DNA of 64,000 bases from an uncultured Gammaproteobacteria bacterium (GTDB taxonomy: Bacteria > Patescibacteriota > Microgenomatia > Daviesbacterales > UBA10151), in NCBI GenBank assembly GCA_964547465.1, contig CAZJNI010000006.1, positions 2,505-66,504 on the forward strand, read 5' to 3'. The notes under the pieces are model-generated. The model did not search any database. It was not told the DNA's origin and saw nothing but the letters and a program-made list of their open reading frames with translations. The translations under genes and the position numbers were made by a program. The stretch's first letter is position 1. The number at the start of each line of letters is the position of its first letter. This document shows positions 7,751 to 24,667 of the stretch, in pieces.

Positions 7751-9040
7751 ATGAACAAAGTAATACTACATATTGATTTTAATAGCTACTTTGCAACAGT
7801 GGAACAGCAGGCTAATCCCAGGCTTCGGGGTAAACCTGTTGGGGTAACTGGAGGAGATCGTATGAAGCGTACAGTTTTGGGTGCAGCATCAGTTGAAGCT
7901 AAAAAGTTTGGAGTTAAAACAGGCATGCAGATTTGGCAGGCAAAACAGCTTTGTCCTGAAATCATTTTAGTTACTGGGGATTCTGATAAGTATTTAGAGA
8001 CTACCAAGCGTTTTTTGGCTATTTTAAACGGTTACAGCCCATATTTGGAGGTGTTTAGTATAGATGAGGTATTTTTAGAATTACCTCCCCCTGTCATTGC
8101 GAAGCCACGAAGTGGCTGTGGCAATCTTGATTCTTTTAAGAAAGATTCCCACGTCGCTTCGCTCCTCGGAATGACAAAAGAAATTGCCCAAGAGATTAAA
8201 TCCCGTATTAAAGCTGAAATAGGTGAGTGGATTACTTGTTCCATTGGAATTTCTTATAACAAATTAATGGCAAAGTTAGCCGGATCTTTGTACAAACCGG
8301 ATGGATTAGTGATTATTGCAGATGAACAGGCTGCACAGTTTATTTTGGACAGAGTGGGGTTGGATGAAATTTGCGGGATTGGTTCTAGAATTAAAAAAAG
8401 GCTTAATAATATGGGTATTTTTAACTTTTCCCAATTGAGGCAAGTACCCCTCCCGGCTTTACTGGCTTCCTTTAAATCTTATGGCCAAACTCTATATAAC
8501 ATGAGCCGGGGGATAGATAATTCAGAAGTAATACCGTTTTATGAAAAAGAAGAAGTTAAATCAGTTGGCCACAGGCACACTATTGACCATGATACTGCTG
8601 ATCCTGTGGAGATTAAACAGATTCTACTTAAATTAACAGAACTTGTGGCAAGAAGACTGCGGGTCAAAAATTTAGTGGGTAAAACAGTCTCTGTTTGGTT
8701 TAGGTATGCTGACTTTGAAGGTAATGGTATGCAAACAACAATTTCTCCCACCCAGGATGGGCTGGAAATATTTAAAGCTGCCTGGGGAATTTTTCAAAAG
8801 ATATGGGATAGAGGGGAAATAAGGATGATAGGGGTGTCTATTTCTAATTTAGCTTCACAAACTCCGCAAAACTTGTCTTTATTACCAGAATCCAAACAAC
8901 AGGAAACAATTATCCAAACCCTGGACAAAATAAATAATAAATATGGTGAATTTAGTTTGCAAAGAGGAATTTTGTTAGGTTCATCCAAAATGCGCCGGAT
9001 GCCAAATCCTTTCCTTGCAGACAGAAGATTTAAGATTTAA
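7751..9040 (+). CDS. dinB: DNA polymerase IV (Y-family, DinB)
   Basis: N-terminus ILHIDFNSYFATVEQQANPRLRGKPVGV matches DinB ILHVDMDCFFAAVE. 429 aa. Carries an in-frame repeat-element insertion at 8093-8175. Confidence 0.75.
   Translation: MNKVILHIDFNSYFATVEQQANPRLRGKPVGVTGGDRMKRTVLGAASVEAKKFGVKTGMQIWQAKQLCPEIILVTGDSDKYLETTKRFLAILNGYSPYLEVFSIDEVFLELPPPVIAKPRSGCGNLDSFKKDSHVASLLGMTKEIAQEIKSRIKAEIGEWITCSIGISYNKLMAKLAGSLYKPDGLVIIADEQAAQFILDRVGLDEICGIGSRIKKRLNNMGIFNFSQLRQVPLPALLASFKSYGQTLYNMSRGIDNSEVIPFYEKEEVKSVGHRHTIDHDTADPVEIKQILLKLTELVARRLRVKNLVGKTVSVWFRYADFEGNGMQTTISPTQDGLEIFKAAWGIFQKIWDRGEIRMIGVSISNLASQTPQNLSLLPESKQQETIIQTLDKINNKYGEFSLQRGILLGSSKMRRMPNPFLADRRFKI
8093..8175 (+). repeat. RPE-like palindromic element (gtcattgcg...gcaatc family, long form with TIR gtcatt/aatgac) inserted in-frame in dinB
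   Basis: gtcattgcgaagccacgaagtggctgtggcaatc...cgcttcgctcctcggaatgac encodes ...VIAKPRSGCGNLDSFKKDSHVASLLGMT.... Confidence 0.6.
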
Positions 9041-9076
9041 TGTACAATTTATAATGTACAATGTACAATTAAGGAA

Positions 9077-10072
9077 ATGAGAATTTTGGTTACTGGCGGA
9101 GCCGGGTTTTTAGGGTCTCACCTTTGTGACAAGCTGATAGAGATGGGAAACCAGGTAATATGCGTGGATAATTTAATCACTGGTTCTGAAAAAAATATTG
9201 AACATTTAAAAGGTAATCCCAACTTTGAATTTATAAACCAGGATGTAATTCAGCCAATCTCTATAGATAAGATTGCCACTCCCGCACCAGAATCGGTGCG
9301 GGATCGCAATGACGGTGGGGGGGTAATTGATCAGATTTATCATTTAGCCTCTCCTGCCTCGCCTAATAAAAATAATCCCCAAAGCTACATTGCATATCCT
9401 TTTGAAACAATGCAGGTTAATACCACTGGAACATGGAAGTTAGCAGAGGCAGCTACAAAATTGGGCGCTAAATTTTTATTTGCCTCCACATCAGAGGTTT
9501 ATGGGGATCCCAAAGAACACCCGCAAAAAGAAGTCTATAGGGGAAATGTTTCGACAACCGGTCCCAGGGCAGTTTATGATGAAGCCAAAAGATTCGGGGA
9601 AACCATAGTCTCTTCCTTTGTACGCGAGAAAAATCTGGATGGCAGAATAGTTAGGATTTTTAATACATACGGACCAAGAATGGCAGATGATGGCAGGGTG
9701 GTAATTGAGTTTGTAAAAGCAGCTTTAGAAAATAAGCCTTTTCCTGTTTTTGGGGATGGAAAACAGACAAGGTCATTTTGCTACGTATCTGATTTAACAG
9801 ATGGAATTATTGCGGTTATGGAAAAAGGAGTAAGCGGGGAAATATACAATTTAGGAAATCCAGATGAATTCACAGTATTGGAACTGGCAGAAAAGGTTAA
9901 ACAGTTAACTAATTCCGGCTCAAATCCGGAGTTTGTGGAAGAGTTACCAGAAGATGATCCTCTGAAACGTTGTCCTGATATTACAAAAGCAAAAGATGAA
10001 TTAGGCTGGGAGCCAAAAGTAAGCCTGGAGGAAGGTTTAAAATTACTAATTGCTTCTCTCAAAAGGGTATAA
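9077..10072 (+). CDS. NAD-dependent epimerase/dehydratase, UDP-glucuronate decarboxylase (UXS)-like
   Basis: MRILVTGGAGFLGSHLCDKL Rossmann N-terminus and a YxxxK family; UXS-like throughout. An in-frame insertion sits at 9278-9313. Confidence 0.7.
   Translation: MRILVTGGAGFLGSHLCDKLIEMGNQVICVDNLITGSEKNIEHLKGNPNFEFINQDVIQPISIDKIATPAPESVRDRNDGGGVIDQIYHLASPASPNKNNPQSYIAYPFETMQVNTTGTWKLAEAATKLGAKFLFASTSEVYGDPKEHPQKEVYRGNVSTTGPRAVYDEAKRFGETIVSSFVREKNLDGRIVRIFNTYGPRMADDGRVVIEFVKAALENKPFPVFGDGKQTRSFCYVSDLTDGIIAVMEKGVSGEIYNLGNPDEFTVLELAEKVKQLTNSGSNPEFVEELPEDDPLKRCPDITKAKDELGWEPKVSLEEGLKLLIASLKRV
9278..9313 (-). repeat. RPE-like element (gtcattgcg family, reverse orientation) in-frame in the UXS-like gene
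   Basis: The reverse complement of cccgcaccagaatcggtgcgggatcgcaatgac is gtcattgcgatcccgcaccgattctggtgcggg; it encodes the ATPAPESVRDRNDGG insert. Confidence 0.6.
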
Positions 10073-10829
10073 TCCTTAAAGACACGATAAATTTTGCAAT
10101 CTCATCACCCATAAAAATTAATCCTGCATTTGAAGGGTGGATAAAATCTGAAGTGTTAATATAATCTGCTGACTTATCAAAGGATTTATCAAAAAGATTT
10201 ATCAAAGGGATTTTGTGCTCCCTGGCATATTTGATATGATTTTTTATATAAGCAATTCTTTCATCAGCCCATTTTCCTCTTTCCTCTGTGGTTAAATTAA
10301 CAACTCCTTCTGCGTATCTGTCTCTACTTGGAGCAATAGTTGCCACAAAAAAAATTGCTGCTCTAGGCTTTGCCTCTCTTATAATTTTCAAAGCCTGGCT
10401 CAAAATTTCAGTTTGTTTTTTTAATCCATCATCAAGCGAATATCCTGAAAGGGGATTATTACCAAAAGACTCAATTAAAATTGCATCAAAATCATGGTTT
10501 AATATAGGCATTAGAGTTTCATTGCCTCTTATCGCACCCTTGCCTAATCTATCCGGTAAAGTAAGAATAGAAGTTGAACCAATTCCATAATTTAGAATAT
10601 GAAACTCTTTTTCCGGATAATATTTTCGAATAATAGGTAAGATGGTCTCGCCTGCACCCAGCGCTTGAGTCATGGAATCACCGGCTAAAATTATGGTATA
10701 TTTAGAGGCAGGTTTAGCCTGAATCCCTAAGATATGAGAGTTGGAAAAAAATCTCTCCACAGGCAAAATAATATTTAAGCTGATAAAGAAAAAAAAGGCG
10801 CTACAACAGATGGATGCCAGAATATTCAC
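10059..10829 (-). CDS. SGNH/GDSL-family hydrolase with N-terminal TM anchor
   Basis: ILAGDSMTQALG (GDS block I) plus a hydrophobic N-terminus. Confidence 0.55.
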   Translation of the reverse strand: MNILASICCSAFFFFISLNIILPVERFFSNSHILGIQAKPASKYTIILAGDSMTQALGAGETILPIIRKYYPEKEFHILNYGIGSTSILTLPDRLGKGAIRGNETLMPILNHDFDAILIESFGNNPLSGYSLDDGLKKQTEILSQALKIIREAKPRAAIFFVATIAPSRDRYAEGVVNLTTEERGKWADERIAYIKNHIKYAREHKIPLINLFDKSFDKSADYINTSDFIHPSNAGLIFMGDEIAKFIVSLRIIPF

Positions 10830-10880
10830 GTATCAAGACTAACACAAAAGTCCCACAAAAATGTGGGTTTTTGTTGTTTG

Positions 10881-10953
10881 TACGCCCAGAGGGATTCGGA
10901 CCCCCGGCCTACTCGTTAGAACCGAGTTGCTCTATCCACTGAGCTATGGGCGC
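10881..10953 (-). tRNA. tRNA-Arg(TCT)
   Basis: Manual cloverleaf: GCGCCCA/TGGGCGT acceptor, D-arm GCTCAGTGGATAGAGC, anticodon loop GTTCTAA, T-loop TCCGAAT. 73 nt, no encoded CCA. Confidence 0.8.
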
Positions 10954-10986
10954 ATCTTATGCGACCAGGCGAAGTGGACAAGGTTT

Positions 10987-11013
10987 CCTTATCCACTGAG
11001 CTATGGGCGCATC
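10987..11013 (-). repeat. Partial duplicate of the tRNA-Arg 5' portion (acceptor + D-arm, approx 27 nt)
   Basis: tatccactgagctatgggcgcatctta recurs 56 bp beyond the tRNA 5' end. Confidence 0.6.
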
Positions 11014-11067
11014 TTACATATTTTATCAGGAGGTTGACAAAATAGAAAGATCTTGTTAAGTTATTAA

Positions 11068-11733
11068 ATGATGAAAAAAACTGCTGCTGTTTTAGCCCTA
11101 CTTACTTCAGGTTTACTTCTTACCCAAACCATTTTTGCCAGGGAAGCAACTCCATCAACAACTGCAGTTATCAGAAAAGAAGCAGTCCAACAAAGAATTG
11201 ATACAAGAAAATTGGCATTAGAGGATAAGATGGCTGCATTAAAAGAAAAAATGGCCTCCAGGACAGCAGCTTTAAAAACAAGATTACAAACTTTTAAGGA
11301 TCAGAGAAAAGCCCAGATTGCAGAAAGGGTTAATGCTACTCTTGCAAAAATAAACGAGAACCAAACCAATCAAATGTTGAAATTTTTAAATACAATGACT
11401 TCTATTTTGGATAAGCTGGAAGCAAGAGTTAATCAACCTACACCTGACATTAAGGATCCTGTGAAAGCCAAGCTTGCCATAGCAGATGCCAGAATAACTA
11501 TCGCATCAGCTTCAGCAGCAGTTACTACCCAAGCTCAAAATGATTATCCAATTGAGGCTACATCAGAGGCTAAAATCAGACAGGAAGCACAAGATGCCAG
11601 GAATAATTTGCACACAGATTTGTTAGCTGTCAGGAAATTAGTGATTGATGCAAAACAGGCAGTTGCAAATGCCATCAGGATTGCCAAGTCAGGACCGCCT
11701 ATAAAGGAGGGAACAGCCAGTGGACAACAGTAA
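11068..11733 (+). CDS. Secreted coiled-coil protein (hypothetical)
   Basis: Signal peptide MMKKTAAVLALLTSGLLLTQTIFA; A/K/Q-rich heptad-like sequence. Confidence 0.4.
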   Translation: MMKKTAAVLALLTSGLLLTQTIFAREATPSTTAVIRKEAVQQRIDTRKLALEDKMAALKEKMASRTAALKTRLQTFKDQRKAQIAERVNATLAKINENQTNQMLKFLNTMTSILDKLEARVNQPTPDIKDPVKAKLAIADARITIASASAAVTTQAQNDYPIEATSEAKIRQEAQDARNNLHTDLLAVRKLVIDAKQAVANAIRIAKSGPPIKEGTASGQQ

Positions 11734-12034
11734 TCCAACAAATCCAGCCCCTGCAGCAGCTGCGGTATCACCAGCACCTGCCCTAAATCCGCAGCCAAAT
11801 ATGATGTCAAACAACAAAATGATTTTATGGCTTATTTTAGGATTGGTCATTGTAGTTCTCTTAATCGGGGGAGCATATTTTTACGTTAATAGTCAAAAAG
11901 CCAATGCTCCGGCTGAATCTCAAACACCCCAAACTCAAACTGTAGATAGTTTAGAAAATGATCTAAATTCTGCTGATGCCGGGGATTTGGAGAATGATTT
12001 TGCCCCGGTAGATTCAGATCTGCAAAGCCTCTAA
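11720..12034 (+). CDS. Small single-pass membrane protein (hypothetical)
   Basis: TM helix ILWLILGLVIVVLLIGGAYFYV; overlaps the upstream gene end. Confidence 0.35.
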   Translation: MDNSNPTNPAPAAAAVSPAPALNPQPNMMSNNKMILWLILGLVIVVLLIGGAYFYVNSQKANAPAESQTPQTQTVDSLENDLNSADAGDLENDFAPVDSDLQSL

Positions 12035-12040
12035 GGTTAA

Positions 12041-12889
12041 ATGAAGAAAATAGCGTTGTTCCTGCTACTTTTTATGGGCAGCTTGATTGCTTACTCTTTT
12101 TTTAGTAAGCCCACAACTCATACTTTTATATTCCAAAGGGATACCCTTCAAAAAAGGGTGGAAGATGTTATGGATGGCAGCGATGGCCAGTATGGAATCT
12201 TTATAAAAAACTTAAAGACCGGAGAAACCTATACTAGAAATGAACATCAAATATTTGAGCCAGGCAGCCTTTATAAGGTTTGGCTGATGGGGGCTGTTTT
12301 TGAAAAAGTTAAAGTGGGTGAAATAAAAGAGAGTAATGCGTTAGCGGCAGATGTTGCATCTTTAAACACTGAATTTGAAATAGATCCTGAAAGTGCAGAG
12401 CTTACCGATGGAGTTTTGAATTTTTCCATTTCTTCTGCACTTGAACAGATGATTACCATATCCCACAACTATGCTGCATTGGCTTTAACAAAAAAAGTAG
12501 GGAGGCCTGCAATCACGGATTTTTTAAAAAGTTACGGTTTATCAGACTCATCTTTAGGTACCCCACTTAAAGCAAGTGCATATGATTTTGGCAGGTTATT
12601 TGAAAAGCTCTACATAGGAGAAATTATTGATAAAGAATATTCTCAAAAAATGCTGGATGTTTTAGCAAGACAAAAAATTAATGACCGGATCCCAAAATAT
12701 TTACCAAATGGTACAAAAGTTGCCCATAAAACCGGGGATATTGGTTATGTTGAAAATGATGCGGGAATAGTATTTTCTCCTGCTGGAGACTTCATAATTG
12801 TAGTTTTATCAGAAACCAAGGATGCCAATTTTGCCGGAGATAAAATTGGCAGAATATCAGAAGCTGCTTATAATTATTTTAATAAATAG
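12041..12889 (+). CDS. Class A beta-lactamase-like serine hydrolase
   Basis: S-x-x-K (SLYK), SHN and KTG motifs (HKTGDIG) in class-A order; N-terminal signal/TM. Confidence 0.6.
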   Translation: MKKIALFLLLFMGSLIAYSFFSKPTTHTFIFQRDTLQKRVEDVMDGSDGQYGIFIKNLKTGETYTRNEHQIFEPGSLYKVWLMGAVFEKVKVGEIKESNALAADVASLNTEFEIDPESAELTDGVLNFSISSALEQMITISHNYAALALTKKVGRPAITDFLKSYGLSDSSLGTPLKASAYDFGRLFEKLYIGEIIDKEYSQKMLDVLARQKINDRIPKYLPNGTKVAHKTGDIGYVENDAGIVFSPAGDFIIVVLSETKDANFAGDKIGRISEAAYNYFNK

Positions 12890-12992
12890 TCAAAAAACTG
12901 ATTAGGTCTAAAAAATGCATAAGTATACATAACAAAGTGCAATAACAATCTTTAACGAAGATGTATACTGTAACAAGTAAAATGAAAACTAT

Positions 12993-13829
12993 ATGAATCA
13001 AGAAGCAGCGCAGGTAACTAAAATAGCTATCTTTCGAAATAGGAAAATAAGGAAAACTATTCATAAAAATGAATGGTGGTTTGTAATTGTTGATGTTGTG
13101 GCTGCTTTAACTGATTCAGTTCAGCCGGATGGCTATATAAAAGATATGCGAAGACGTGATCCGGAACTTTCTAAAGGGTGGGGGCAAATTGCCACCCCCC
13201 TTGCAGTTCAAACATCAGGTGGTAGGCAAAAATTAAATTGTGCCAACACAGAAAGTATATTTAGGATTATCCAATCTATACCTTCTCCTAAAGCAGAGCC
13301 TTTTAAATTATGGTTAGCTAAAGTTGGGTATGAAAGGGTGCAGGAGATAGAAGATCCTGAGTTAGCCCAAAAAAGAGCCAGGGCACTCTACAAGGCAAAA
13401 GGGTATCCCGAGGATTGGATAGAAAGACGAATGCGTTCTATTGCCATTAGGGAAGAATTGACCGATGAGTGGCAAAAACACGGTGTAGAACTGGCAAAAG
13501 AGTATGAAATACTAACTGCCGAGATATCTAAAGCCACTTTTGGTGTTACACCATCTGAATATAAGAAAATAAAAGGACTTAAACGTCAAAATCTGCGTGA
13601 TCATATGAGTGATTTGGAACTTTTGTTTTCCCAACTTGGCGAGGCAGCCACCACAGAAATTACCAAAACAGAACACCCTAGAGGGTTTGAGAGAAATAAA
13701 CAAGTCTCAAAGCGTGGTGGTAAAATTGCCGGAGATGCCAGATCTAATTTAGAGAAGGAAACTGGCAGGAAAGTAATAACTTCACAAAATTATTTGCCGA
13801 AGAAGAGAGGTAAAAGGCTACTAAAATAA
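12993..13829 (+). CDS. Bro-N / KilA-N domain protein (phage-associated antirepressor-like)
   Basis: N-terminus FRNRKIRKTIHKNEWWFVIVDVVAALT matches the Bro-N core (R..DGE.WF.AKDVA.AL). Confidence 0.55.
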   Translation: MNQEAAQVTKIAIFRNRKIRKTIHKNEWWFVIVDVVAALTDSVQPDGYIKDMRRRDPELSKGWGQIATPLAVQTSGGRQKLNCANTESIFRIIQSIPSPKAEPFKLWLAKVGYERVQEIEDPELAQKRARALYKAKGYPEDWIERRMRSIAIREELTDEWQKHGVELAKEYEILTAEISKATFGVTPSEYKKIKGLKRQNLRDHMSDLELLFSQLGEAATTEITKTEHPRGFERNKQVSKRGGKIAGDARSNLEKETGRKVITSQNYLPKKRGKRLLK

Positions 13830-13885
13830 AGGGTTATTTACAGAAGTAACAACGATTAGATTTTAGCGAAATTTAAAGACTTTCT

Positions 13886-13935
13886 GAAGCTAAAATCCAC
13901 GAGTTCGATAAAATTTTTATGGAGCCCCTGACGAG
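13886..13935. repeat. Degenerate cassette-boundary repeat (gaagctaaaa..agttcgataaaatt + tRNA-3'-like tggagc...)
   Basis: Similar to 15457-15537; see the tRNA-Gly array finding. Confidence 0.4.
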
Positions 13936-14161
13936 ATCTTAGCCAGACTGCCAGGATTCGTTCAAGAGTTTAGCTCAAATCCTATTTTACCAGATTTTTT
14001 GTATGAATTACAGCCAAAATTAGCCTCAAAAACTGACAGATTGGCCTAGAGTTTTTTCTTTCTATTGCCTCTTATCTATTTTTTCTATTGTTGCGAAGTC
14101 ATTTTTCATGCATAATTATGCATAGTAAAAATCTGAAGAGTATTTACTGAAAAATTAATAT

Positions 14162-15388
14162 ATGAATGATAAAACAGTATATGTACTAGGTGCAGGGTTT
14201 AATCAATTTCTTGAAGATTTTGATGGCACAACACCTCCACTAGCCAGAGATTTCTTTAAAAAAGCCTTTAGTAAACGTAAATTTAATGAGCAAATATATC
14301 TTAACCAAATTAAGGACTTACTGGATTACATAGAACAATATTGGCATCTTGACTTATCAGATCTCAGAAAGGAAGACGTTGATCTTGAAGAAATCTTTAC
14401 CTTAATACAGCTACAAGTTGAAAAGGCAAAGTCAAAAAGAGACTATAAAGAACTAAAAAGACTAATTGAGGTCAGCTTTAAACTTGAGTCTTTCTTTTCA
14501 GAGTTTTTATCAGATTTCGTACCGATAAATCCTCGAAGACCTAGAGGATATTCTTATCTAGTAAAATTCGGAAAATTATTATTGCAGCGTCAACCGACAA
14601 TTATTACTTTCAACTACGATACTTTGCTAGAAGAGGGTATTGCATCAGCTTCTGGGGTTACAAATCCTCCTCCTTCTTACCTAACTTTACATCAAAACAC
14701 TTATAAGAAAAGCGAATTGCCTTCATCTATCCTTAAATATTCACATCATAACTGGAATTCTATACTATCTTATGGTTTCAAATTTGACTATGTTCAACTT
14801 CCTCAGGCTGGCCTAACCCAAATCGTTAGTCTGAAACAATATTATGGTGATCAACTTAACAAGCTTTATAAAATGGAAATATTAAAACTCCACGGTTCCC
14901 TAAACTGGATGGAAGTCGCTGGACCGCTAGACAGGAACGCTTGGAGCAACAAGGACCATTTTAGTTGGAAAGATTTCCCAGCAGAGATTCAAAGGAAACA
15001 AGGAGTTATTTATTATCGTGGACATTGGCATTTCGGTAGCCATCCCTTACTTAGTACGTGGTTTCTGAGACCAAAAATCATTACACCTGTTCTCTATAAA
15101 GACTCCTTTTATAATAGACATCCTTTTCCAGACTTATGGAAGAAAGCTTTGCATGCGCTAAAGCAATGCAAACGTTTAATAATTATTGGATATTCTTTCC
15201 CCCAGACAGATTTCTCCACCAAAATGCTTTTTTTAGAGGCATTTTCAGAGAATTTACTAGAAGAGTTAGTACTGGTAAATCCTGATGAATCTGGTGCTGT
15301 TGGGAAAATAGCCAAAAAATTAACACACTTTTCAAAGCCTATTTTCTACAAATCTGCACAAGACTATATACGAAGTCTGGCGTTGTAA
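14162..15388 (+). CDS. SIR2-like (sirtuin/SIR2_2 family) protein, standalone
   Basis: 408 aa. N-terminal VYVLGAGFNQF glycine loop, catalytic-His motif ILKLHGSLNW (sirtuin LHGS), C-terminal IIIGYSFPQTDF (SIR2_2 iGyS..D block). Confidence 0.6.
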   Translation: MNDKTVYVLGAGFNQFLEDFDGTTPPLARDFFKKAFSKRKFNEQIYLNQIKDLLDYIEQYWHLDLSDLRKEDVDLEEIFTLIQLQVEKAKSKRDYKELKRLIEVSFKLESFFSEFLSDFVPINPRRPRGYSYLVKFGKLLLQRQPTIITFNYDTLLEEGIASASGVTNPPPSYLTLHQNTYKKSELPSSILKYSHHNWNSILSYGFKFDYVQLPQAGLTQIVSLKQYYGDQLNKLYKMEILKLHGSLNWMEVAGPLDRNAWSNKDHFSWKDFPAEIQRKQGVIYYRGHWHFGSHPLLSTWFLRPKIITPVLYKDSFYNRHPFPDLWKKALHALKQCKRLIIIGYSFPQTDFSTKMLFLEAFSENLLEELVLVNPDESGAVGKIAKKLTHFSKPIFYKSAQDYIRSLAL

Positions 15389-15498
15389 CCTTCCTCATTC
15401 TTTGAGGTTCGATTCCCCTTAGGGTATAAGGTTATAGGATCGAATTTTGACTAATTTTATCAACTTTCCGAAGCTAAAACTTGTCAGTTCGATAAAAT

Positions 15499-15537
15499 TC
15501 GTCTGAGGCGGGAGACGCAAATTATTCCGAACTCTTT
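15499..15537. repeat. Partial copy of the tRNA-Gly(TCC) 3' end/trailer (cassette boundary)
   Basis: gtctgaggcgggagacgcaaattattccgaactcttt resembles 16059-16100 and the tRNA 3' region at 16771-16790. Confidence 0.5.
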
Positions 15538-15655
15538 GACTGTTTCATTAATAGAATTTAATAAATTCATGCACATGTATCAAGCTGTGAAAGAACAATA
15601 AAGCTATGAAATTGTTTAAGTTCAATTTCCGACAGAATTATTGTACACTTAACTA

Positions 15656-16045
15656 GTGAATAAAAAGAACCTATCTTTAAAAACATACATAAAAGTTATG
15701 TTCAGTTGGATTTTATTTCAGATGGTAATTTTTTTAATCGACATTTCTCTTTATCGAATCGTAGATTATAGCTCATATTTCCATTATATTTGGTCTTTAC
15801 GAATATTATTATTTGCTGTTCTCTTAGGTTTCATTTATAAAAAAGAGAATATCATTTGGGCCAATATTGCTTCTTGGATTGCCATACCCTTATTCTATAT
15901 TACCCTACCATATATTTTGAGAATTTCTAGTGAATCAGTATATGGACCCATATTAATTTTGGGGATTTTTGGTCAAATAGCAGCTATTACGGGAACCCTA
16001 ATAGCAATTTTATTAAGGAAATTAATGATTAATGCTAAACTATGA
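15656..16045 (+). CDS. Small polytopic membrane protein (hypothetical)
   Basis: 129 aa with 3-4 hydrophobic helices. Confidence 0.4.
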   Translation: MNKKNLSLKTYIKVMFSWILFQMVIFLIDISLYRIVDYSSYFHYIWSLRILLFAVLLGFIYKKENIIWANIASWIAIPLFYITLPYILRISSESVYGPILILGIFGQIAAITGTLIAILLRKLMINAKL

Positions 16046-16058
16046 ACTTTACTGCAAC

Positions 16059-16100
16059 TGCCCCGTCTGGAGCGGGAGATGCAAATTATCCCGAACTCTT
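16059..16100. repeat. Partial copy of the tRNA-Gly(TCC) 3' end + trailer
   Basis: ctgccccgtctggagcggga is identical over 20 nt to 16771-16790, which spans the real tRNA 3' end. Confidence 0.6.
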
Positions 16101-16206
16101 TTTTCTACAGATCTTAATCCATTTTAGAAGGTTAATGGAAGCTTACCAATCTCAAGTGGATGAAAATGAGCTTGATTCTTTACCAATTACCTGATATTTT
16201 TTTCTT

Positions 16207-16713
16207 ATGAGGGTTAATTACTTAGGAAAGAAAATAAGATTAGCACTTAAGAAAGCATCCACAATTGAAGACGTGCTTGATATTACGAGGCTACTTATAA
16301 CTCAGATTAAAATTGAAGATCCCAAAGCAAAAATTGGCTATGTTTCTGGTAAGGTTACTGCTGATGGAAAAGACAGAATTCCCCATAATCTGAAAAGAAT
16401 GCATAAATTTACGAGAAAACTTAAAGAAATTCACGGAGAACAAATCTTTTCTGCAGCTGATATTTTTAGTGATATCGTCTACTGGAAAATAAATCTTCCT
16501 AGACCAATACACGAAAAGGATTTTTATAATTTTTGGAGAAAAATTGTAAGTAGTGGGGTAACTGATATTTATATGACCCCAGAATGGGAAAGATCTCATG
16601 GAGCTAAAGATGAACATAAGATAGCAAAAACATTAAATATTAATATTCATTATATAGTTTTTGAAGAGACGGGAATCGAACTCCAGATTGAACCTAAAGT
16701 TAGAAGGAGATAG
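16207..16713 (+). CDS. Hypothetical protein (possibly Rossmann-like, nucleoside 2-deoxyribosyltransferase/DUF4406-like)
   Basis: 168 aa; IGYVSGKVTADG and TPEWERSHGAKDE segments. Assignment is weak. Confidence 0.35.
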   Translation: MRVNYLGKKIRLALKKASTIEDVLDITRLLITQIKIEDPKAKIGYVSGKVTADGKDRIPHNLKRMHKFTRKLKEIHGEQIFSAADIFSDIVYWKINLPRPIHEKDFYNFWRKIVSSGVTDIYMTPEWERSHGAKDEHKIAKTLNINIHYIVFEETGIELQIEPKVRRR

Positions 16714-16778
16714 GAGAATTCAATGAAATTAATACTATTTCAGGAAAAATTTGAGGCTAGCTACTTAGCTGCCCCGTC

Positions 16779-16853
16779 TGGAGCGGGATAGGGGAATCGG
16801 ACCCCTTACGTCCACTTTGGAAAAGTGGCATTCTACCGGTGAATTAATCCCGC
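16779..16853 (-). tRNA. tRNA-Gly(TCC), CCA encoded
   Basis: GCGGGAT acceptor, anticodon loop TTTCCAA, T-arm AGGGG-TCCGATT-CCCCT, 3' ATCCCGC-T-CCA. 75 nt. Confidence 0.8.
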
Positions 16854-16945
16854 AAGTATAAAAAATTAGGCTTTAAATTAGCAACAACCTGGTTTCATAA
16901 CTTACATATTTTAACCAAAATCAGATTTTTTAACAAGGATTGGAG

Positions 16946-17545
16946 TTAAACTTTTTGAGTTGCTGTCCCAAGTATCTCTAGCTGTTCAGACAAATCAGAT
17001 AACTGATATTTGGCAAGATCAATACCGTTTTTTTGAGCAATTACCAATCCTTGGATAATTTTTCTGGCCCTGACTGCATCTTTAGTACTTAAATATCCTA
17101 TATCTACAGAATTTTCAGTAAATCCTACATCCACAATTTTCAGGGTAGAAAAAAGTAAGCCAGTCTCAACCACCACATCTGATACATCCTTAATATATAC
17201 ACTATGAATATGGCTGGAAAAGAAAAAATACCTATAAATAATATTTACTTTATTTATGTCAACCACCACCTCATCCGGAAAAGGATTCAAGGGGATGATA
17301 GTTCTTATTTTGATAAGTGGTTTTTGCGAATTTTCCACTAGATCATTAAGCTTTTCTGTATCAGTTACTTTCTCATCAGGAGGACTATGATTAGGCGGAT
17401 CTAGATTCTTTCTCAAAATATCTCCTTCAGTTACTTCACGATCTAAAATAAGCCTTCTATAAGGTAAGCTTAAATATTTGGCCTGAAAACCAGTTCTTAG
17501 GTGTTGATCTTTCTCCTCAAGTTGTCCGTCTGTTTGAGGTATCAT
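16946..17545 (-). CDS. Hypothetical protein
   Basis: 199-aa ORF; no recognisable motifs. Confidence 0.4.
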   Translation of the reverse strand: MIPQTDGQLEEKDQHLRTGFQAKYLSLPYRRLILDREVTEGDILRKNLDPPNHSPPDEKVTDTEKLNDLVENSQKPLIKIRTIIPLNPFPDEVVVDINKVNIIYRYFFFSSHIHSVYIKDVSDVVVETGLLFSTLKIVDVGFTENSVDIGYLSTKDAVRARKIIQGLVIAQKNGIDLAKYQLSDLSEQLEILGTATQKV

Positions 17546-17610
17546 GATTTTTCCATACTCTCATTTATGGATAAGATTTTTGCGAAGTTCTGGTAAGAAT
17601 TTTGCAAGTA

Positions 17611-18351
17611 CTACTGGATTTCGTAACTTAAGGTAACAACTACTGTAATATCGGATGAACCAGGTTCTATTTGAGTTGGAGCTCCCTGGGCTTTTATATC
17701 AGCAGCCGAAAGCATAGGAATAGGCCTTGGAAGACCTCCAAAATCTTCTGAATAATTTATAATCCTGCCCAGTTTAAATCCGGCAATTTTTGCAGCATCT
17801 TCTGCTTTTTTCTTAGCATCAGCCACAGCTTTTTGCCTGGCCTCATTTTCGGACTTGGATTTGTCATCTACATCAAATGAAATTCCCCCCACCTGATTCG
17901 CCCCATTGGCTGTGGCCTCATCAATCACAGAGTTTGCCCTCTCAATTTGTCTGACCTTAATAGATAAATTTGTACTGGCAGAATAACCGGTTAGTCTTTG
18001 ACCTCCAGTATAGTCATAACTTGGGTTAATATTATAGTTTGTGGTCTGGATATCTTTAGCATCTACCCCCAGACTCTTAACAGCTGTAGAAACTTTATTA
18101 ATAGTGGAATTAATCTGATTCTGGGCATCTTTCACAGTTGCTCCTTTAGCAGAAATACCCACTGTCACCATAGCCACATCAGGAGCAGCAGTTGCTTTTC
18201 CTTCACCAGTCACATCAAATGTGGTAGATTTAGTGGTAGTTACAGAGTTTACAGAAAACGGAATTGGTCCGAAAATTTTGGTAAAGCTAAATAGCAGGAT
18301 AAAAAAAGTTGTAGCTCCAATTACAGGTAAGAGCAAAATCCTTGTGTTCAC
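17611..18351 (-). CDS. SIMPL/DUF541-domain periplasmic protein
   Basis: Signal/TM N-terminus; GEGKATAAPDVA...GYSASTNLSIKV...AVADAKKKAEDAAKIAGFKLGRI typical of the SIMPL (26-kDa immunogenic protein) family. Confidence 0.6.
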   Translation of the reverse strand: MNTRILLLPVIGATTFFILLFSFTKIFGPIPFSVNSVTTTKSTTFDVTGEGKATAAPDVAMVTVGISAKGATVKDAQNQINSTINKVSTAVKSLGVDAKDIQTTNYNINPSYDYTGGQRLTGYSASTNLSIKVRQIERANSVIDEATANGANQVGGISFDVDDKSKSENEARQKAVADAKKKAEDAAKIAGFKLGRIINYSEDFGGLPRPIPMLSAADIKAQGAPTQIEPGSSDITVVVTLSYEIQ

Positions 18352-18390
18352 AAATTAATAATACCACATTTTCTGTTAAACTTTTATTAG

Positions 18391-19281
18391 ATGAAGCATA
18401 GAGTTTTTAATATTTCTTTATTTGTAATTTATATAGCGGGGATGACTGCTTTGATGATCTGGCAAGGGATTGGTATTGATCCGTCAAGATATGCATTTGT
18501 CCTCCTTCTGGCCAGCCTTTTGGTAAAGAGAACCAGATCATTCATTTTGGACTGGACTCCATTTTTATTTATTTTACTATCCTATGATTTTTTAAGAGGA
18601 TTTGCAGACAACTTAAATACCCGTGTTAATTTTACTCTGCTAATTAACGCAGAGAGAGGCATTTTTGGATCCATTCCCACCATTGATCTTCAAAAAATGT
18701 TATACAATCCCTTGCATCCATCCCTTATAGACTTTTTTTTCACTATTTTTTACTTTTTACACTTTGCCCTGCCTTTAAGCTTTGGGTTTATTCTATGGCT
18801 TTACGACAGAAGCCATTTCAGACAATTTGTAACTGGAATATTACTTATCTCTTATACAGCCTGGATTTCATTTTTAATATACCCATCCGCCCCTCCCTGG
18901 CTGGCCTCAAATGAAGGGTATTTGCCTAAGGTATACAAAATATTAGATGTAACTTTAGGAGCTTTCCCGGATAAATGGAATTTGCCTTCTGTTTATCACC
19001 AATTTAATCCAAACCCGGTGGCTGCCATGCCATCGCTACACGGCGGATATCCGGTTCTAGTATTACTTTTTGCCATTAAATTTTTCAGATTGAAAGCTTT
19101 ATTTTTTATTCCATATGTTCTAGGAGTATTTTTGTCGGTTGTTTATTTGGGAGAGCATTATATTGTGGATTTAATAGGAGGTAGCTTGTATGCCCTGATT
19201 TGCTATTTTATTGCAGCAAGATTACATGTAATTGATTGGGGAAGACTAATTAATAAATATATTAAAAGATTGGAGAGTTAA
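18391..19281 (+). CDS. PAP2-superfamily integral membrane protein (IPC-synthase/AUR1-like)
   Basis: Polytopic; PSLHGGYP (PSGH-like) and EHYIVDLIGG (HxxxD-like) motif order. Confidence 0.5.
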   Translation: MKHRVFNISLFVIYIAGMTALMIWQGIGIDPSRYAFVLLLASLLVKRTRSFILDWTPFLFILLSYDFLRGFADNLNTRVNFTLLINAERGIFGSIPTIDLQKMLYNPLHPSLIDFFFTIFYFLHFALPLSFGFILWLYDRSHFRQFVTGILLISYTAWISFLIYPSAPPWLASNEGYLPKVYKILDVTLGAFPDKWNLPSVYHQFNPNPVAAMPSLHGGYPVLVLLFAIKFFRLKALFFIPYVLGVFLSVVYLGEHYIVDLIGGSLYALICYFIAARLHVIDWGRLINKYIKRLES

Positions 19282-19601
19282 TTTAAGTTCTCTATTTTTG
19301 CAGCTAAAATAAAATCATTTTCTGATAAACCACCAATATTGTGTGTCGTTAAATCAATAACTACTCTTTTGTAGTAAATATGAATATTGGGATGATGATC
19401 CTCCTGCTGGGCCAGTTTTCCCACTTTTTGGGCAAATTCTAATCCGCCTGAATAAGTTTCAAACTTAAATTCGTGTTTGATTTTCTTATCCTCTACAACT
19501 TCCCAGTCTAACTTTAATTGTTTTAATAATGGCTCATATTCTTTTGGTTCAAGCGGAGGAGTATTAATTTCACAGGGAACACATTTTTTTTGAGATAACA
19601 T
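19278..19601 (-). CDS. Pterin-4a-carbinolamine dehydratase (PCD/DCoH)
   Basis: EDHHPNIHI motif and family-typical length (107 aa). Confidence 0.7.
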   Translation of the reverse strand: MLSQKKCVPCEINTPPLEPKEYEPLLKQLKLDWEVVEDKKIKHEFKFETYSGGLEFAQKVGKLAQQEDHHPNIHIYYKRVVIDLTTHNIGGLSENDFILAAKIENLN

Positions 19602-19605
19602 TTCG

Positions 19606-20016
19606 TCAAATTATACCTTTTTTCTTTAAAAGGTTTAAATCATGCTGGATTGTTTTTAACTCTGCCCCAATATGCAGAATCACTTTATGTGCTGCTTCTT
19701 CTTCTGTTACATCTTCCTGAATATCTTCTATATCCTCCTCAACTTCCTCCAGGCTTTCAGTATTTCTGTTAACGCTCATCTGGATAAAAATTGCCAGGTA
19801 TATAGCCTCAATAGAAAGCCAGGTAGTAAACATCAAAAGAATAGTACGCAGTTCATAACCTAGGAAGGAAAGTGCCGGAACTGCAACAAATAAACAGGTA
19901 TGAAAAAGTACAGAATAGGGTGTACCCACCCATTTGATAAGCTTGAATGAAATCTGCTCAAGAAAAGTGAGTTTTTGGTGTCCGTTTCCATTACCATTGG
20001 TATATTTTACAGTCAT
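19606..20016 (-). CDS. Small membrane protein (DUF1003-like); likely start at ATG 20014-20016 preceded by GGAGGA
   Basis: Two TM helices and an acidic C-terminal tail; SD ggagga lies 5 nt upstream of the internal Met. Confidence 0.4.
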   Translation of the reverse strand: MTVKYTNGNGNGHQKLTFLEQISFKLIKWVGTPYSVLFHTCLFVAVPALSFLGYELRTILLMFTTWLSIEAIYLAIFIQMSVNRNTESLEEVEEDIEDIQEDVTEEEAAHKVILHIGAELKTIQHDLNLLKKKGII

Positions 20017-20197
20017 GGCATCCTCCTTTTTAAGTGTATAACGCAATTTAAAACACAAAAAAATCTCTGCCCGTCTTTTCTGGTTTTAGAGATTTCTAAG
20101 TTAATTGTGGCACCGTGAAAAGGGTATGTCAACCCCCCAAAATACGGCTAAAATAATCATGGAATCAATTTTGATTTATAGGTATAATAACCCTTAA

Positions 20198-20279
20198 GCT
20201 GATGTGGTGGAATGGCATACACGTTCGCCTTAAGAGCGAATGCCCAAAAGGCATGTGGGTTCGACTCCCACCATCAGCA
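20198..20279 (+). tRNA. tRNA-Leu(TAA)
   Basis: GCTGATG acceptor, anticodon loop CTTAAGA, long variable arm, T-arm GTGGG-TTCGACT-CCCAC. 82 nt. Confidence 0.8.
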
Positions 20280-20400
20280 CTGACACCGAAAGTCAGTTCA
20301 AAGGACTGATTTTCGGTGGCATGATGGTATTGGAGAGAATCCCAGCTCGAAGAGCGGTTCGTTCTCGCCGAAGGCGAGGTATTCCTCCCACCATCAGCAC
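20280..20400 (+). repeat. Spacer with a 14-bp-stem hairpin and a duplicated tRNA-Leu 3' end (ctcccaccatcagcac)
   Basis: Hairpin caccgaaagtcagt-tcaaagg-actgattttcggtg at 20284-20318. The 16-nt tRNA-Leu 3' end is repeated at 20385-20400, directly before tRNA-Pro. Confidence 0.55.
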
Positions 20401-20472
20401 CGGGGTCTAGTTCATCGGTAGAACGCTCGCTTTGGGAGCGAGAAGTACAGGGTTCAATTCCCTGGACCCCGA
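20401..20472 (+). tRNA. tRNA-Pro(TGG)
   Basis: CGGGGTC acceptor, anticodon loop TTTGGGA, T-arm CAGGG-TTCAATT-CCCTG. Confidence 0.8.
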
Positions 20473-20483
20473 CAAAGAATTTC

Positions 20484-21122
20484 TTAGCTCTTATCTAGTA
20501 TGAAAGTAACCTCCATATTTAAAAAGGAAAAAATTTTATCTTTTATCCTAAAGCCGGAGGCATTAATTAGTTTTTCAAGCTGTGTATGGTGAAAAGGATG
20601 TAGATGAGCTCCTTGCCAGATTTTACCCTGGGTATTTTCCCAGATAAACCAGACTATCCTAAAAAGCAAACTGCCGGAATCCATCGAAAGAATTAAAGTC
20701 CCGTTTTTTTTTAAAACTCTTTTAATTTCTCTTAAACATCCTTCAGGATCTTCCACATGCTCAATGGTTTCGTAAAATAAAATTAATTCGAAAGTATTTT
20801 TTTTAAATGGTAATTTGTTAGCAGACGCGATTTTAAACTTTATGTCAGGGTAAGTTTTCCTGGCATACTCAATAGCCTTATCGTATACATCAATGCCATA
20901 ATATTTGGCATCCGGATAAAATGAAGCAATTTTTGAAACCATATATCCTGAAGCGCAACCTATATCAAGGCAATTTTTAAACTTAAGACGGGAGAGTATA
21001 TATTTAGCCAGTTTAATTTTATGGGAATGCCAAAGCCACTGAAAGAGATTTCTCTTTACCCCTTTTTGATAATAAGTTACCGGGACTTGATTCCAAATTT
21101 TATATAAATTGTGGTTTTTCAT
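20484..21122 (-). CDS. Class I SAM-dependent methyltransferase
   Basis: Motif I LDIGCASGYM; Rossmann-fold MTase length. Confidence 0.65.
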   Translation of the reverse strand: MKNHNLYKIWNQVPVTYYQKGVKRNLFQWLWHSHKIKLAKYILSRLKFKNCLDIGCASGYMVSKIASFYPDAKYYGIDVYDKAIEYARKTYPDIKFKIASANKLPFKKNTFELILFYETIEHVEDPEGCLREIKRVLKKNGTLILSMDSGSLLFRIVWFIWENTQGKIWQGAHLHPFHHTQLEKLINASGFRIKDKIFSFLNMEVTFILDKS

Positions 21123-23579: not shown

Positions 23580-23609
23580 CGCGCAATAATCGCGAAATTT
23601 ATCGCGCAT
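23580..23609. repeat. 30-bp direct repeat (left copy) flanking the Fic gene
   Basis: atcgcgcaataatcgcgaaatttatcgcgca is nearly identical to 24721-24750. Confidence 0.7.
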
Positions 23610-24667
23610 TACTTTGATAAAATATAGTAAGTACTGGGGCCACTTCCTTCAACTTTTAATAGCTTATTTGAAACAAGCTTTTTTAATTTAAGCTGAGCTG
23701 CCCTTTTGGAAAGATTCAAAATATCAGAAACATCATCAGAGGTAATTCTACCAGTGGTGGTTAAAAAATCCATAATTTGCAATTCATCCTTATCCAGAAA
23801 TATTTGTTCACTCTTTTTAGAAACTTTACCAAAACCAATAGATTGAATTTGCTCTAAAACTTTTCTGGCTTCAATTAAAAAACCGGCTGTAAAATATTCC
23901 AGCCAGCTGGTAAAATCCATATCCTCTTGATAATTAGCTCCTTGAGCATAATTTTCAGCATTGTAATAAGACATTCTATCCCTATTGTAATAATCTTCTA
24001 ATACCAAAATCTTTCTAAAGTCCCATCCGTCTCTATAAAGTTGAAGTTGTGTTAAAAGCCTGGCTAATCTTCCGTTTCCGTCCGTAAAAGGATGAATTGT
24101 GACAAATTGTAAATGCAGGATTCCTGCCCTGATAATTGGATGAATACCATCTTTTTTAGATTTATCCAACCACTCCAGTAAATCCGCGGTCATCCCTGCT
24201 AGTTTTTTAGCATCAGGCGCCTTAAACCTAACCTTTTCTTTTCCTCCACCTAAATCATCCACCACATAAACATCTGCTGGCCTAAATTTACCTGTTTTTG
24301 ATTTCTCCACCAGCCCGTTAATAATCATCTCATGAAGTTTCAGAATCTCACCCAGCGTGATAGAGTGCTTTATTTTTGCCATCTCATCCAGTTTTTGCAA
24401 AGCTTTGTAGTAATTCTCAACTTCCAAAATATCTTTTTGGGAAGCTTTAACCGGCTTACCTTCCAAAACTTTACCCACCTCAAATTGGGCTAATCTATTT
24501 CCTTCAATAGAAGTTGAAGTGTGAGCCATCCTTAGAATTGCCTGGCGCCTCAATTGGGCCTCATTTAGAGGAAGTACACGGGACCTCTCAATAATTGCCT
24601 TAATTTCAGCAATCTCTGTCATATTGGATAGGGTTTTAGGAGAAATAGAATAAACAGGCTCTAACAT
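23609..24667 (-). CDS. Fic/DOC-family protein (AMPylase) with C-terminal wHTH
   Basis: Fic motif HPFTDGNGRLARLL. Confidence 0.75.
   Translation of the reverse strand: MLEPVYSISPKTLSNMTEIAEIKAIIERSRVLPLNEAQLRRQAILRMAHTSTSIEGNRLAQFEVGKVLEGKPVKASQKDILEVENYYKALQKLDEMAKIKHSITLGEILKLHEMIINGLVEKSKTGKFRPADVYVVDDLGGGKEKVRFKAPDAKKLAGMTADLLEWLDKSKKDGIHPIIRAGILHLQFVTIHPFTDGNGRLARLLTQLQLYRDGWDFRKILVLEDYYNRDRMSYYNAENYAQGANYQEDMDFTSWLEYFTAGFLIEARKVLEQIQSIGFGKVSKKSEQIFLDKDELQIMDFLTTTGRITSDDVSDILNLSKRAAQLKLKKLVSNKLLKVEGSGPSTYYILSK

Follow-up and report, generated by a model that had tools for sequence, protein, structure and literature searches.

A stand-alone SIR2_2 protein in a tRNA-bounded island of a Daviesbacterales genome: a candidate one-gene effector of abortive infection

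The DNA analysed here (64,000 nt, the whole of which is called the window) spans positions 2,505 to 66,504 of contig CAZJNI010000006.1 in assembly GCA_964547465.1, deposited as an uncultured Gammaproteobacteria bacterium and placed by GTDB in the Daviesbacterales (Patescibacteriota, Microgenomatia). At positions 14162-15388 of its forward strand, the window carries a gene with an ATG start for a solo 408-amino-acid (aa) protein of the SIR2_2 ('sirim') type. Judged by its relatives, this protein belongs to a solo clade, so far uncharacterised, within the broad SIR2_2/sirim superfamily; it seems rather likely to be a self-contained, one-gene effector that destroys NAD+ in anti-phage abortive infection (Abi). 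The first-pass annotation, made from the letters of this DNA, had suggested a host of the Candidate Phyla Radiation (CPR) type, and the TypA protein of the host is indeed 78-82% identical to proteins named Candidatus Daviesbacteria. Apart from the island described below, the window is occupied by housekeeping genes, including atpD, glmS, thrS, pheT and the PBP1A gene. Loci that contain relatives of the SIR2 gene are designated by L-numbers and the relative proteins by P-numbers.

The SIR2 gene and its product

The limits of the open reading frame (ORF) and the length of its product are exactly those given in the first-pass annotation, and the motifs named there (the GAG loop, KLHGSLNW and GYSF) are in place and conserved among 24 aligned family members. 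The GAGFN motif starts at residue 10, FNYD at 150, KLHGSLNW at 242 and GYSF at 343; the invariant or nearly invariant positions among the 24 members are G10, A11, G12 and N14, the N151-Y152-D153 triplet, K242, L243, H244, G245, S246, N248 and W249, and G343, Y344, F346 and D350. The hidden Markov model (HMM) search that had been proposed gave the anticipated outcome. The protein matches Pfam SIR2_2 (PF13289) at 27.9 bits against a gathering score of 24.5 (E = 2.8e-6), this family is matched by 23 of the 24 aligned members, and the classical sirtuin family Pfam SIR2 (PF02146) is not matched by the window protein at E <= 0.1; with the catalytic residues conserved, the assignment to SIR2_2 with an intact catalytic motif holds. 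No NCBIfam model was matched. In the PADLOC scan, the protein matched solely models named 'SIR2' (best score 33 bits) and none of the ThsA, ThsB, DSR, AbiH or other named-system models. The PADLOC 'SIR2' models probably belong to the GAO_19 system because GAO_19 is entered as '(SIR2, HerA)' in the published PADLOC table.

In classical sirtuins, a Zn-binding cysteine tetrad holds the acyl-lysine substrates; its absence, together with a sheet of at least seven strands, marks the immune 'sirim' subfamily (Bonhomme et al., bioRxiv 10.1101/2024.09.18.613514). The 408 residues of the window protein include a single cysteine (C336), so that a Zn-binding tetrad is absent, and the predicted structure has the SIR2 Rossmann fold with at least seven strands, a helical insertion after beta1 and the conserved NAD+ pocket formed by the GAG loop, the Asn/Asp residues and the His. 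These predicted features make the protein a sirim rather than a deacylase, and its NAD+-processing site is intact.

The AlphaFold2 model, a monomer prediction built on the 24-sequence family alignment, is of high confidence (mean predicted local distance difference test score, 87.5; predicted template modelling score, 0.89). In the structure comparison, the top match of the model was PsSIR2 of the Paenibacillus SIR2-HerA system (8w9l; score 20.3, 275 residues aligned), followed by a second SIR2-HerA SIR2 subunit (8yhx, 17.6), the E. coli Nezha SIR2 subunit (8j4u, 17.3), the archaeal Sir2Af1 (14.7), ThsA (13.5), KomC (13.2), SirTM (12.4), Avs5 (12.0) and FAM118B (10.3). The Foldseek ranking agrees with this order; its match to the SPARSA structure 8jl0 is weak (E = 1.9e-3). 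Structure prediction had also been proposed as a check of the annotation, and it yields a confident SIR2 fold, with SIR2-HerA subunits ranking above ThsA.

A single-sequence search of the PDB with the window protein gave nothing relevant; the family profile produced a sub-threshold match to 8w9l (E = 0.54) that is good for residue mapping only. In this alignment, FNYD falls on TNYD (chain positions 162-165) and KLHGSLNW on KLHGSINW (210-217), and N151, D153 and H244 align with N163, D165 and H212 of PsSIR2. According to the structure paper on that protein (PMC11472057), these are the putative catalytic residues, and mutation of SIR2 NADase catalytic residues in PsSIR2-HerA abolished protection from phage T7. 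The catalytic residues predicted for the window protein are N151, D153 and H244, with the GAG loop at residues 10-12. The alpha-helical insertion after beta1 (approximately residues 28-143, encoded by 14245-14590 on the forward strand) consists of helices between the strands at residues 5-9 and 146-149 of the model and is equivalent in placement to the 'small domain' of PsSIR2. The latter (residues 53-130) is described in PMC11472057 as blocking the NAD+ pocket and autoinhibiting the NADase, and its deletion as activating the enzyme. By this analogy, the small domain of the window protein, which in SIR2 folds covers the NAD+ pocket, is a candidate autoinhibitory or sensing module.

The island between tRNA-Arg and tRNA-Gly

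The SIR2 gene is located in a variable island (10880-16853) anchored on the left by tRNA-Arg(UCU) (10880-10953, reverse strand, ARAGORN) and on the right by tRNA-Gly(UCC) (16779-16853, reverse strand, ARAGORN; Rfam tRNA, 56.2 bits). The GC content is 0.335 for positions 13830-16778 compared with 0.376 for the window. Upstream of the SIR2 gene, on the same strand, lies a gene for a Bro-N/DinD-like protein (12993-13829; Pfam Bro-N, 44.1 bits; PDC-S13, 378 bits, E = 5.9e-114; phrog_15286, 298 bits), which was missing from the first-pass annotation; PDC-S13 is a candidate single-gene defence family of PADLOC. Downstream, also on the forward strand, are a gene for a 129-aa multi-pass membrane protein without a family match (15656-16045) and one for a 168-aa protein (16207-16713) that had been labelled uncharacterised and can be corrected to a DUF4406/nucleoside 2-deoxyribosyltransferase-like protein (Pfam DUF4406, 29.7 bits; phrog_355). 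The DUF4406 family is common in phages, and the window copy occupies a cassette of its own beside the tRNA gene.

The claim that these genes form repeat-bounded cassettes is borne out: in the series Bro-N, SIR2, membrane protein and DUF4406, a boundary repeat separates each gene from the next, within intergenic gaps of 332, 267 and 161 nt. The template of these repeats is the junction of the 3' end of tRNA-Gly with its downstream flank (16769-16788, 20 nt). The boundary between the SIR2 and membrane protein cassettes (15494-15537, forward strand) starts with a degenerate, 69% copy of this junction (15494-15513), and the one between the membrane protein and DUF4406 cassettes (16058-16101, forward strand) starts with a second 20-nt copy (16058-16077) and contains a repeat that is 89% identical to 15500-15537; in both, the junction copy is trailed by the same 24-nt arm, GATGCAAATTATCCCGAACTCTTT. 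The SIR2 gene itself is bracketed by a 56-nt direct repeat (13860-13915 and 15444-15499). The first copy belongs to the left boundary element (13859-13954, forward strand), where it is followed by a block common to L002, the locus of the closest homolog: 13859-13929 is 86% identical to L002 positions 2731-2802, and 13921-13954 is 91% identical to L002 positions 110-143. The second copy lies in the conserved 3' flank of the gene (15389-15505, forward strand), which matches L002 positions 2677-2794.

The boundary repeats look like att-like traces of serial, site-specific insertion of single genes at tRNA-Gly, although they may instead represent a family of terminator-like or REP-like hairpins. 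None of the island ORFs matched a recombinase family, the Pfam scan leaving aside two ORFs of 221 and 104 aa. The Bro-N gene, too, appears from these boundaries and from the comparison of loci to be a separate cassette rather than a conserved partner. The 5' half of tRNA-Arg is partly duplicated at 10983-11016 (34 nt, 91%), 57 nt from the tRNA gene, and this duplicate may be another insertion scar. For the conserved 3' flank, a structured RNA or attC-like element was considered and rejected: it has no Rfam match, the folding z-scores (about -0.25 to -1.85) are not significant, and no clear RYYYAAC...GTTRRRY pair is seen by eye in the window copy.

The palindrome reported upstream of the SIR2 gene is real (a perfect 16-bp palindrome, ATGCATAATTATGCAT, at 14108-14123) but ends 38 rather than 40 nt before the ATG and does not exceed chance expectation. 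No other perfect 16-mer palindrome occurs in the window. The number expected from first-order Markov simulations is 1.8 per 64 kb, and 88% of the simulated sequences contain one or more; on these numbers, the palindrome was rejected as a statistically exceptional feature. The palindrome was not found upstream of the homologs in L002 and L003. As for its proposed role as an operator, near-copies are present at 12915-12930 (ATGCATAAGTATACAT), 62 nt before the ATG of the Bro-N/PDC-S13 gene, and at L002 positions 210-225 (ATGTATAAGTATGCAT), in front of the gene that opens the equivalent island; the latter copy lies in a block (L002 197-226) to which the 30 nt at 12902-12931 of the window are 93% identical. 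Strand-matches to the palindrome consensus number 4 against 0.54 expected, an optimistic estimate because the consensus was derived from the same sites. The motif is a weak lead towards a shared regulatory site of the island genes, not an established operator. Promoter-like sites (15, compared with 14.4 in shuffled sequence) and terminator-like sites (1, compared with 2.8) do not exceed shuffled expectation.

Relatives, their neighbours and the search for a partner

The closest homolog (81% aa identity), in L002, is embedded in the same tRNA frame with a different cargo: an EamA transporter, SIR2, a glycosyltransferase and a 362-aa ORF. The locus begins with a sequence resembling the 5' half of a tRNA, read as tRNA-Arg, and its tRNA-Gly(tcc) is placed as in the window. 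L002 positions 1440-2794 and window positions 14152-15505 are 82% identical at the nucleotide level, a block that comprises the gene, 10 nt upstream and 117 nt downstream of it; the 117 nt after the stop codon are thus conserved despite otherwise different flanks, whose only common sequences are three short blocks (30-72 nt). Between the two SIR2 genes, dN/dS is 0.16, which indicates purifying selection. Taken with the island boundaries, this comparison indicates that the SIR2 gene is an accessory and mobile one.

A word-indexed search recovered 843 relatives at E <= 1e-3, of which 5 are close (65-81% identity) and the rest are at or below 45%. The family-profile HMM scan covered 1.84 billion representatives of clusters at 50% identity; 214 of these matched at E <= 1e-30, 3615 at E <= 1e-10 and 9607 at E <= 1e-3. 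Among the 150 matches listed, full-length members have about 380-545 aa and align with the profile from end to end, and the family therefore appears to be essentially a single-domain, stand-alone one. Family members are present in bacteria and archaea, including Asgard lineages, and those at 30-43% identity come from Bathyarchaeia, Promethearchaeota, Acidobacteriota (Pyrinomonadaceae), Clostridia, Haloimpatiens, Vibrionaceae and Rubrobacter; this patchy distribution suggests horizontal transfer. A phage origin of the gene was rejected in the absence of any close phage-encoded relative: the SIR2 protein has no match in PHROG, BFVD yielded classical sirtuins only, and IMG/VR contains only 4 distant relatives (23-27% identity). 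The searched literature holds no study of the solo SIR2 family, its HerA-independence or its occurrence in CPR bacteria and archaea.

In a subset of the members, mostly of about 470-490 aa (P0007, P0013, P0014, P0020, P0025, P0050, P0056 and P0094), there is an extra C-terminal tail of 80 aa (alignment columns ~470-570) with CxxC...CxxGH (CKTCG...CPxGH) spacing. This tail, which is missing from the CPR protein, resembles a zinc ribbon and could act as a sensor module. P0007 is archaeal, given that its gene adjoins those for MCM and GINS.

Close homologs occupy at least three other contexts, two of them behind Type IIG/ISP restriction enzymes. In L003 (71% identity), a same-strand gene for a Type IIG/ISP restriction-modification (R-M) enzyme precedes the SIR2 gene by about 50 nt; in L096 (67%), a Type IIG-type R-M gene, a 462-aa ORF and, after 51 nt, the SIR2 gene follow one another on one strand; and in L097 (67%), the SIR2 gene is behind those for a DUF4365 protein and an acetyltransferase fragment. 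A distant relative in L084, a metagenome-assembled genome (MAG) of Gastranaerophilales, is also encoded behind a Type IIG/ISP R-M gene. The R-M genes, all upstream of SIR2 and on the same strand, are at 791-5181 in L003, 46-4702 in L096 and 4622-8333 in L084. The combination of R-M and SIR2 may be a recurrent pairing or simply reflect clustering in defence islands.

A different setting is seen in Photobacterium phosphoreum (L016, NZ_MSCQ01000001.1, 960747-977865; 36% identity), where attachment-site-like elements on both sides and an array of repeats, small ORFs and ParE toxins accompany the SIR2 gene (features at 7868-7975, 7995-9164 and 9161-9215). The upstream element has the form GTTCAAC...GTTAGTT around an inverted repeat of 17-20 bp and the downstream one AACTAAC...GTTGGGC. 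With attC-like sites judged by eye, this homolog appears to be a cassette of a chromosomal integron; such cassettes typically hold a single gene. Integron cassettes are also rich in compact defence systems (bioRxiv 10.1101/2024.07.02.601686).

Among the 92 neighbours in the 14 closest loci, PADLOC identifies Type IIG R-M, MkoA/MkoC, PDC-M55C, HEC-05 and methyltransferases, and Pfam identifies ParE toxins and integrases, as well as many housekeeping and surface-polysaccharide genes. In Bathyarchaeia (L004/L005, 1-7434; L012, 118-6566), the SIR2 gene is found among those for ribosomal protein L44e, PAC2, UDP-GlcNAc 2-epimerase, MCM and GINS, in a position that differs between MAGs. Thus, the association of the solo family with defence, as seen in these gene neighbourhoods, is suggestive but not clean; published work on the entire sirim clade reports that defence systems are 12-fold enriched in its surroundings.

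The first-pass annotation had found no recognisable partner next to the gene, and neither the window nor the neighbourhoods of relatives contain one. At E <= 1e-6, none of the 63 window ORFs of at least 90 aa matched HerA, TIR or prokaryotic Argonaute (pAgo) models; the PADLOC families matched within the window are PDC-S13, SoFic, PDC-S04, PDC-S24, mad2 and the weak SIR2 models. The SoFic match (E = 4.6e-54) is probably due to a 352-aa Fic-domain protein with the motif HPFTDGNGR (23609-24667, reverse strand). To compare neighbours, all ORFs predicted in 90 loci (80 at one genome per species, plus metagenomic contigs with closer homologs) and at window positions 9001-21000 were run against one another with BLASTP. 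The sole family common to all 90 loci is the SIR2 protein itself; the next-largest one spans 12 loci and is not adjacent. A second pass over 89 loci, at a relaxed E-value and confined to same-strand neighbours less than 150 nt away, returned only pairs, mostly from nearly identical genomes. No homolog of the membrane, DUF4406 or Bro-N protein is encoded near any SIR2 relative in the 90 loci. On these grounds, a pair of Bro-N and SIR2 was rejected, as was a system of SIR2, the membrane protein and DUF4406; the latter had been offered as an alternative, with the 168-aa protein taken as the unknown component, and L002 retains SIR2 without either companion. The membrane protein is likewise not a conserved partner. 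As far as sequence permits, the question is settled: the SIR2 protein has no recognisable partner encoded nearby.

Interpretation and comparison with known systems

Of the possibilities raised at the outset, a single-gene NAD+-depleting effector is the best fit to the comparative evidence, from which we infer it. In an uninfected cell, by analogy with PsSIR2, the helical small domain (approximately residues 28-143) would keep the NAD+ pocket closed. The block would be relieved by an infection cue, for which a phage protein, a signal from nucleic acids or metabolism, and the formation of a higher-order oligomer are all candidates. Hydrolysis of NAD+ by N151, D153 and H244 would follow, and the resulting depletion of the cell would halt phage replication. 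Activation by self-assembly is suggested by analogy with the filamentous or helical assemblies of KomC, Avs5 and FAM118B.

Several observations weigh against this scheme. PsSIR2, the closest characterised relative, is inactive alone and needs HerA (PMC11472057), and a solo enzyme therefore would need another activation route. The identity to SIR2 proteins of solved structure is just 17-20%, the SIR2_2 score of the window protein barely exceeds the threshold, and the solo family is known from sequences alone. The neighbours in the 14 closest loci are a mixture of some defence genes and many housekeeping and surface-polysaccharide genes, and the copy in Bathyarchaeia lies close to MCM, GINS and ribosomal protein genes.

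A bolder form of the one-gene effector, which we regard as conceivable rather than likely, is an autonomous sensor and effector in which sensing would be performed by the small domain, by beta-hairpin insertions or by the zinc ribbon-like tail of the archaeal members, with self-assembly as the switch. Such a protein would be a HerA-independent offshoot of the Nezha type, spread by cassettes and islands across CPR, Asgard archaea, Bathyarchaeia and many bacterial phyla, and would provide genome-reduced CPR cells with a minimal one-gene Abi system.

The SIR2 protein could also be an effector that depends on a distal sensor or signal generator, either a HerA-like ATPase or an enzyme that makes a small molecule, as in Thoeris and Kongming. 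The nearest structural relatives need HerA for activation of the NADase, ThsA and KomC are SIR2 effectors triggered by small molecules, and the view of the genome here is confined to 64 kb. Nevertheless, such dependence is unlikely because cooperating defence genes are normally adjacent, no neighbour recurs among the relatives in 89 loci from many phyla, the family profile spans the protein from end to end and leaves no extra ligand-binding domain such as SLOG, and one homolog is apparently an integron cassette, which as a rule carries one gene. An equally small share of the probability goes to the use of NAD+ for ADP-ribosylation of protein or nucleic acid, as in SirTM, or for another NAD+-derived product, in which case the protein would still serve in defence or as a toxin. 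Enzymes of the SirTM type share an operon with macrodomain proteins, none of which is encoded nearby; furthermore, the characterised immune SIR2 proteins DSR, ThsA, SPARSA and SIR2-HerA are reported to deplete NAD+. Conserved residues cannot tell hydrolysis from transfer, and PsSIR2-HerA is reported to have nuclease besides NADase activity (PMC11472057).

Still less probable is that SIR2 works as a component of a local multi-gene system, together either with the membrane and DUF4406 proteins or with the Bro-N/PDC-S13 protein. The four genes share a strand within 3.7 kb, the palindromic motif precedes both the Bro-N and SIR2 genes, and the nucleoside-glycosidase-type fold of DUF4406 might, speculatively, act on NAD-derived products; these points have to be set against the wide gaps with a boundary repeat in each, the lack of homologs of all three neighbours near SIR2 relatives, and L002, where SIR2 and its 3' flank are kept in the same tRNA frame among wholly different neighbours. 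Slightly less credit can be given to an accessory role unrelated to phage defence, or to a selfish addiction or toxin gene of a mobile cassette. The mixed neighbourhoods, many of them unrelated to defence, the lack of a known defence phenotype in the family, and the ParE toxins and cassette arrays around the Photobacterium copy are compatible with such a role, but the sirim clade, taken together, is strongly associated with defence, close homologs are located directly behind R-M enzymes and the window copy adjoins the PDC-S13 candidate. Finally, a housekeeping NAD+-dependent deacylase similar to the CobB sirtuin, the outcome that would have made the gene an ordinary metabolic one, is very improbable: the protein matches SIR2_2 only, with Pfam SIR2 unmatched at E <= 0.1, its one cysteine leaves no Zn-binding tetrad, and the patchy phyletic pattern, variable contexts and island location are at odds with such a function.

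If the family does defend alone, as in the one-gene effector proposed here, it would be a compact model for the gating of a bare SIR2 domain, it would supply a mechanism for the old single-gene AbiH class as well, and among CPR bacteria, in whose small genomes little immunity may be expected, it would be a rare case of a defence function. If it does not, the generalisation that all sirims are immune proteins needs qualification. The family is a useful candidate, of a kind expected from current knowledge of SIR2_2 defence NADases.

Among the systems compared here, the immune SIR2 NADases with a worked-out mechanism are kept silent until infection by a fused sensor or a partner, whereas the solo family retains the catalytic core and is consistently found without either. 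This difference is apparent in ThsA of Thoeris, DSR1/DSR2, the SIR2-APAZ protein of SPARSA and Avs5 (SIR2-STAND), each of which has a fused sensor or regulatory domain or a dedicated partner, in contrast to the window protein, which is the SIR2 module alone. Specifically, there is no SLOG domain and no TIR neighbour, as in Thoeris; the 408 aa are all SIR2 fold, without the large C-terminal sensor region of the DSR1/DSR2 proteins, which have about 1000 aa; and there is no APAZ fusion and no adjacent short pAgo (no PADLOC match in the window), unlike in SPARSA. KomC of Kongming and FAM118A/B (SIRanc) are more similar in architecture, being short, essentially single-domain sirims, and their structures, deposited as helical or filamentous assemblies, are a precedent for assembly-based regulation. 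However, KomC works with KomA (a deaminase) and KomB, neither of which neighbours the window SIR2 gene, and FAM118 is confined to vertebrates.

AbiH of Lactococcus lactis (PF14253) is a validated single-gene Abi protein with a sirtuin-like fold that is counted among the sirims and for which NAD+ depletion has been proposed. The window protein shares with it the one-gene architecture, a length of several hundred residues and carriage by mobile elements, but belongs to PF13289 and has no PF14253 match at E <= 0.1; only 1 of 24 family members touches PF14253 (E = 0.0079). The SIR2 subunits of the SIR2-HerA systems (Nezha/GAO_19; PsSIR2, 8w9l; E. coli, 8j4u and 8sub) are similar in size (360-408 aa), have the helical small domain after beta1, and align through FNYD and KLHGSxNW on the putative catalytic residues of PsSIR2. 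The differences are the low identity (17-20%; profile E = 0.54) and the absence of HerA next to the window gene, elsewhere in the window or beside any relative; PsSIR2 is inactive without HerA, and activation of the window protein therefore would have to differ. By analogy, the window protein appears to look and work most like the SIR2 subunit of SIR2-HerA, even though the HerA that defines this system is lacking. The role of SIR2_2 proteins as immune NADases is already established and AbiH provides a one-gene precedent, so that a one-gene effector in this genome is plausible and would not be surprising.

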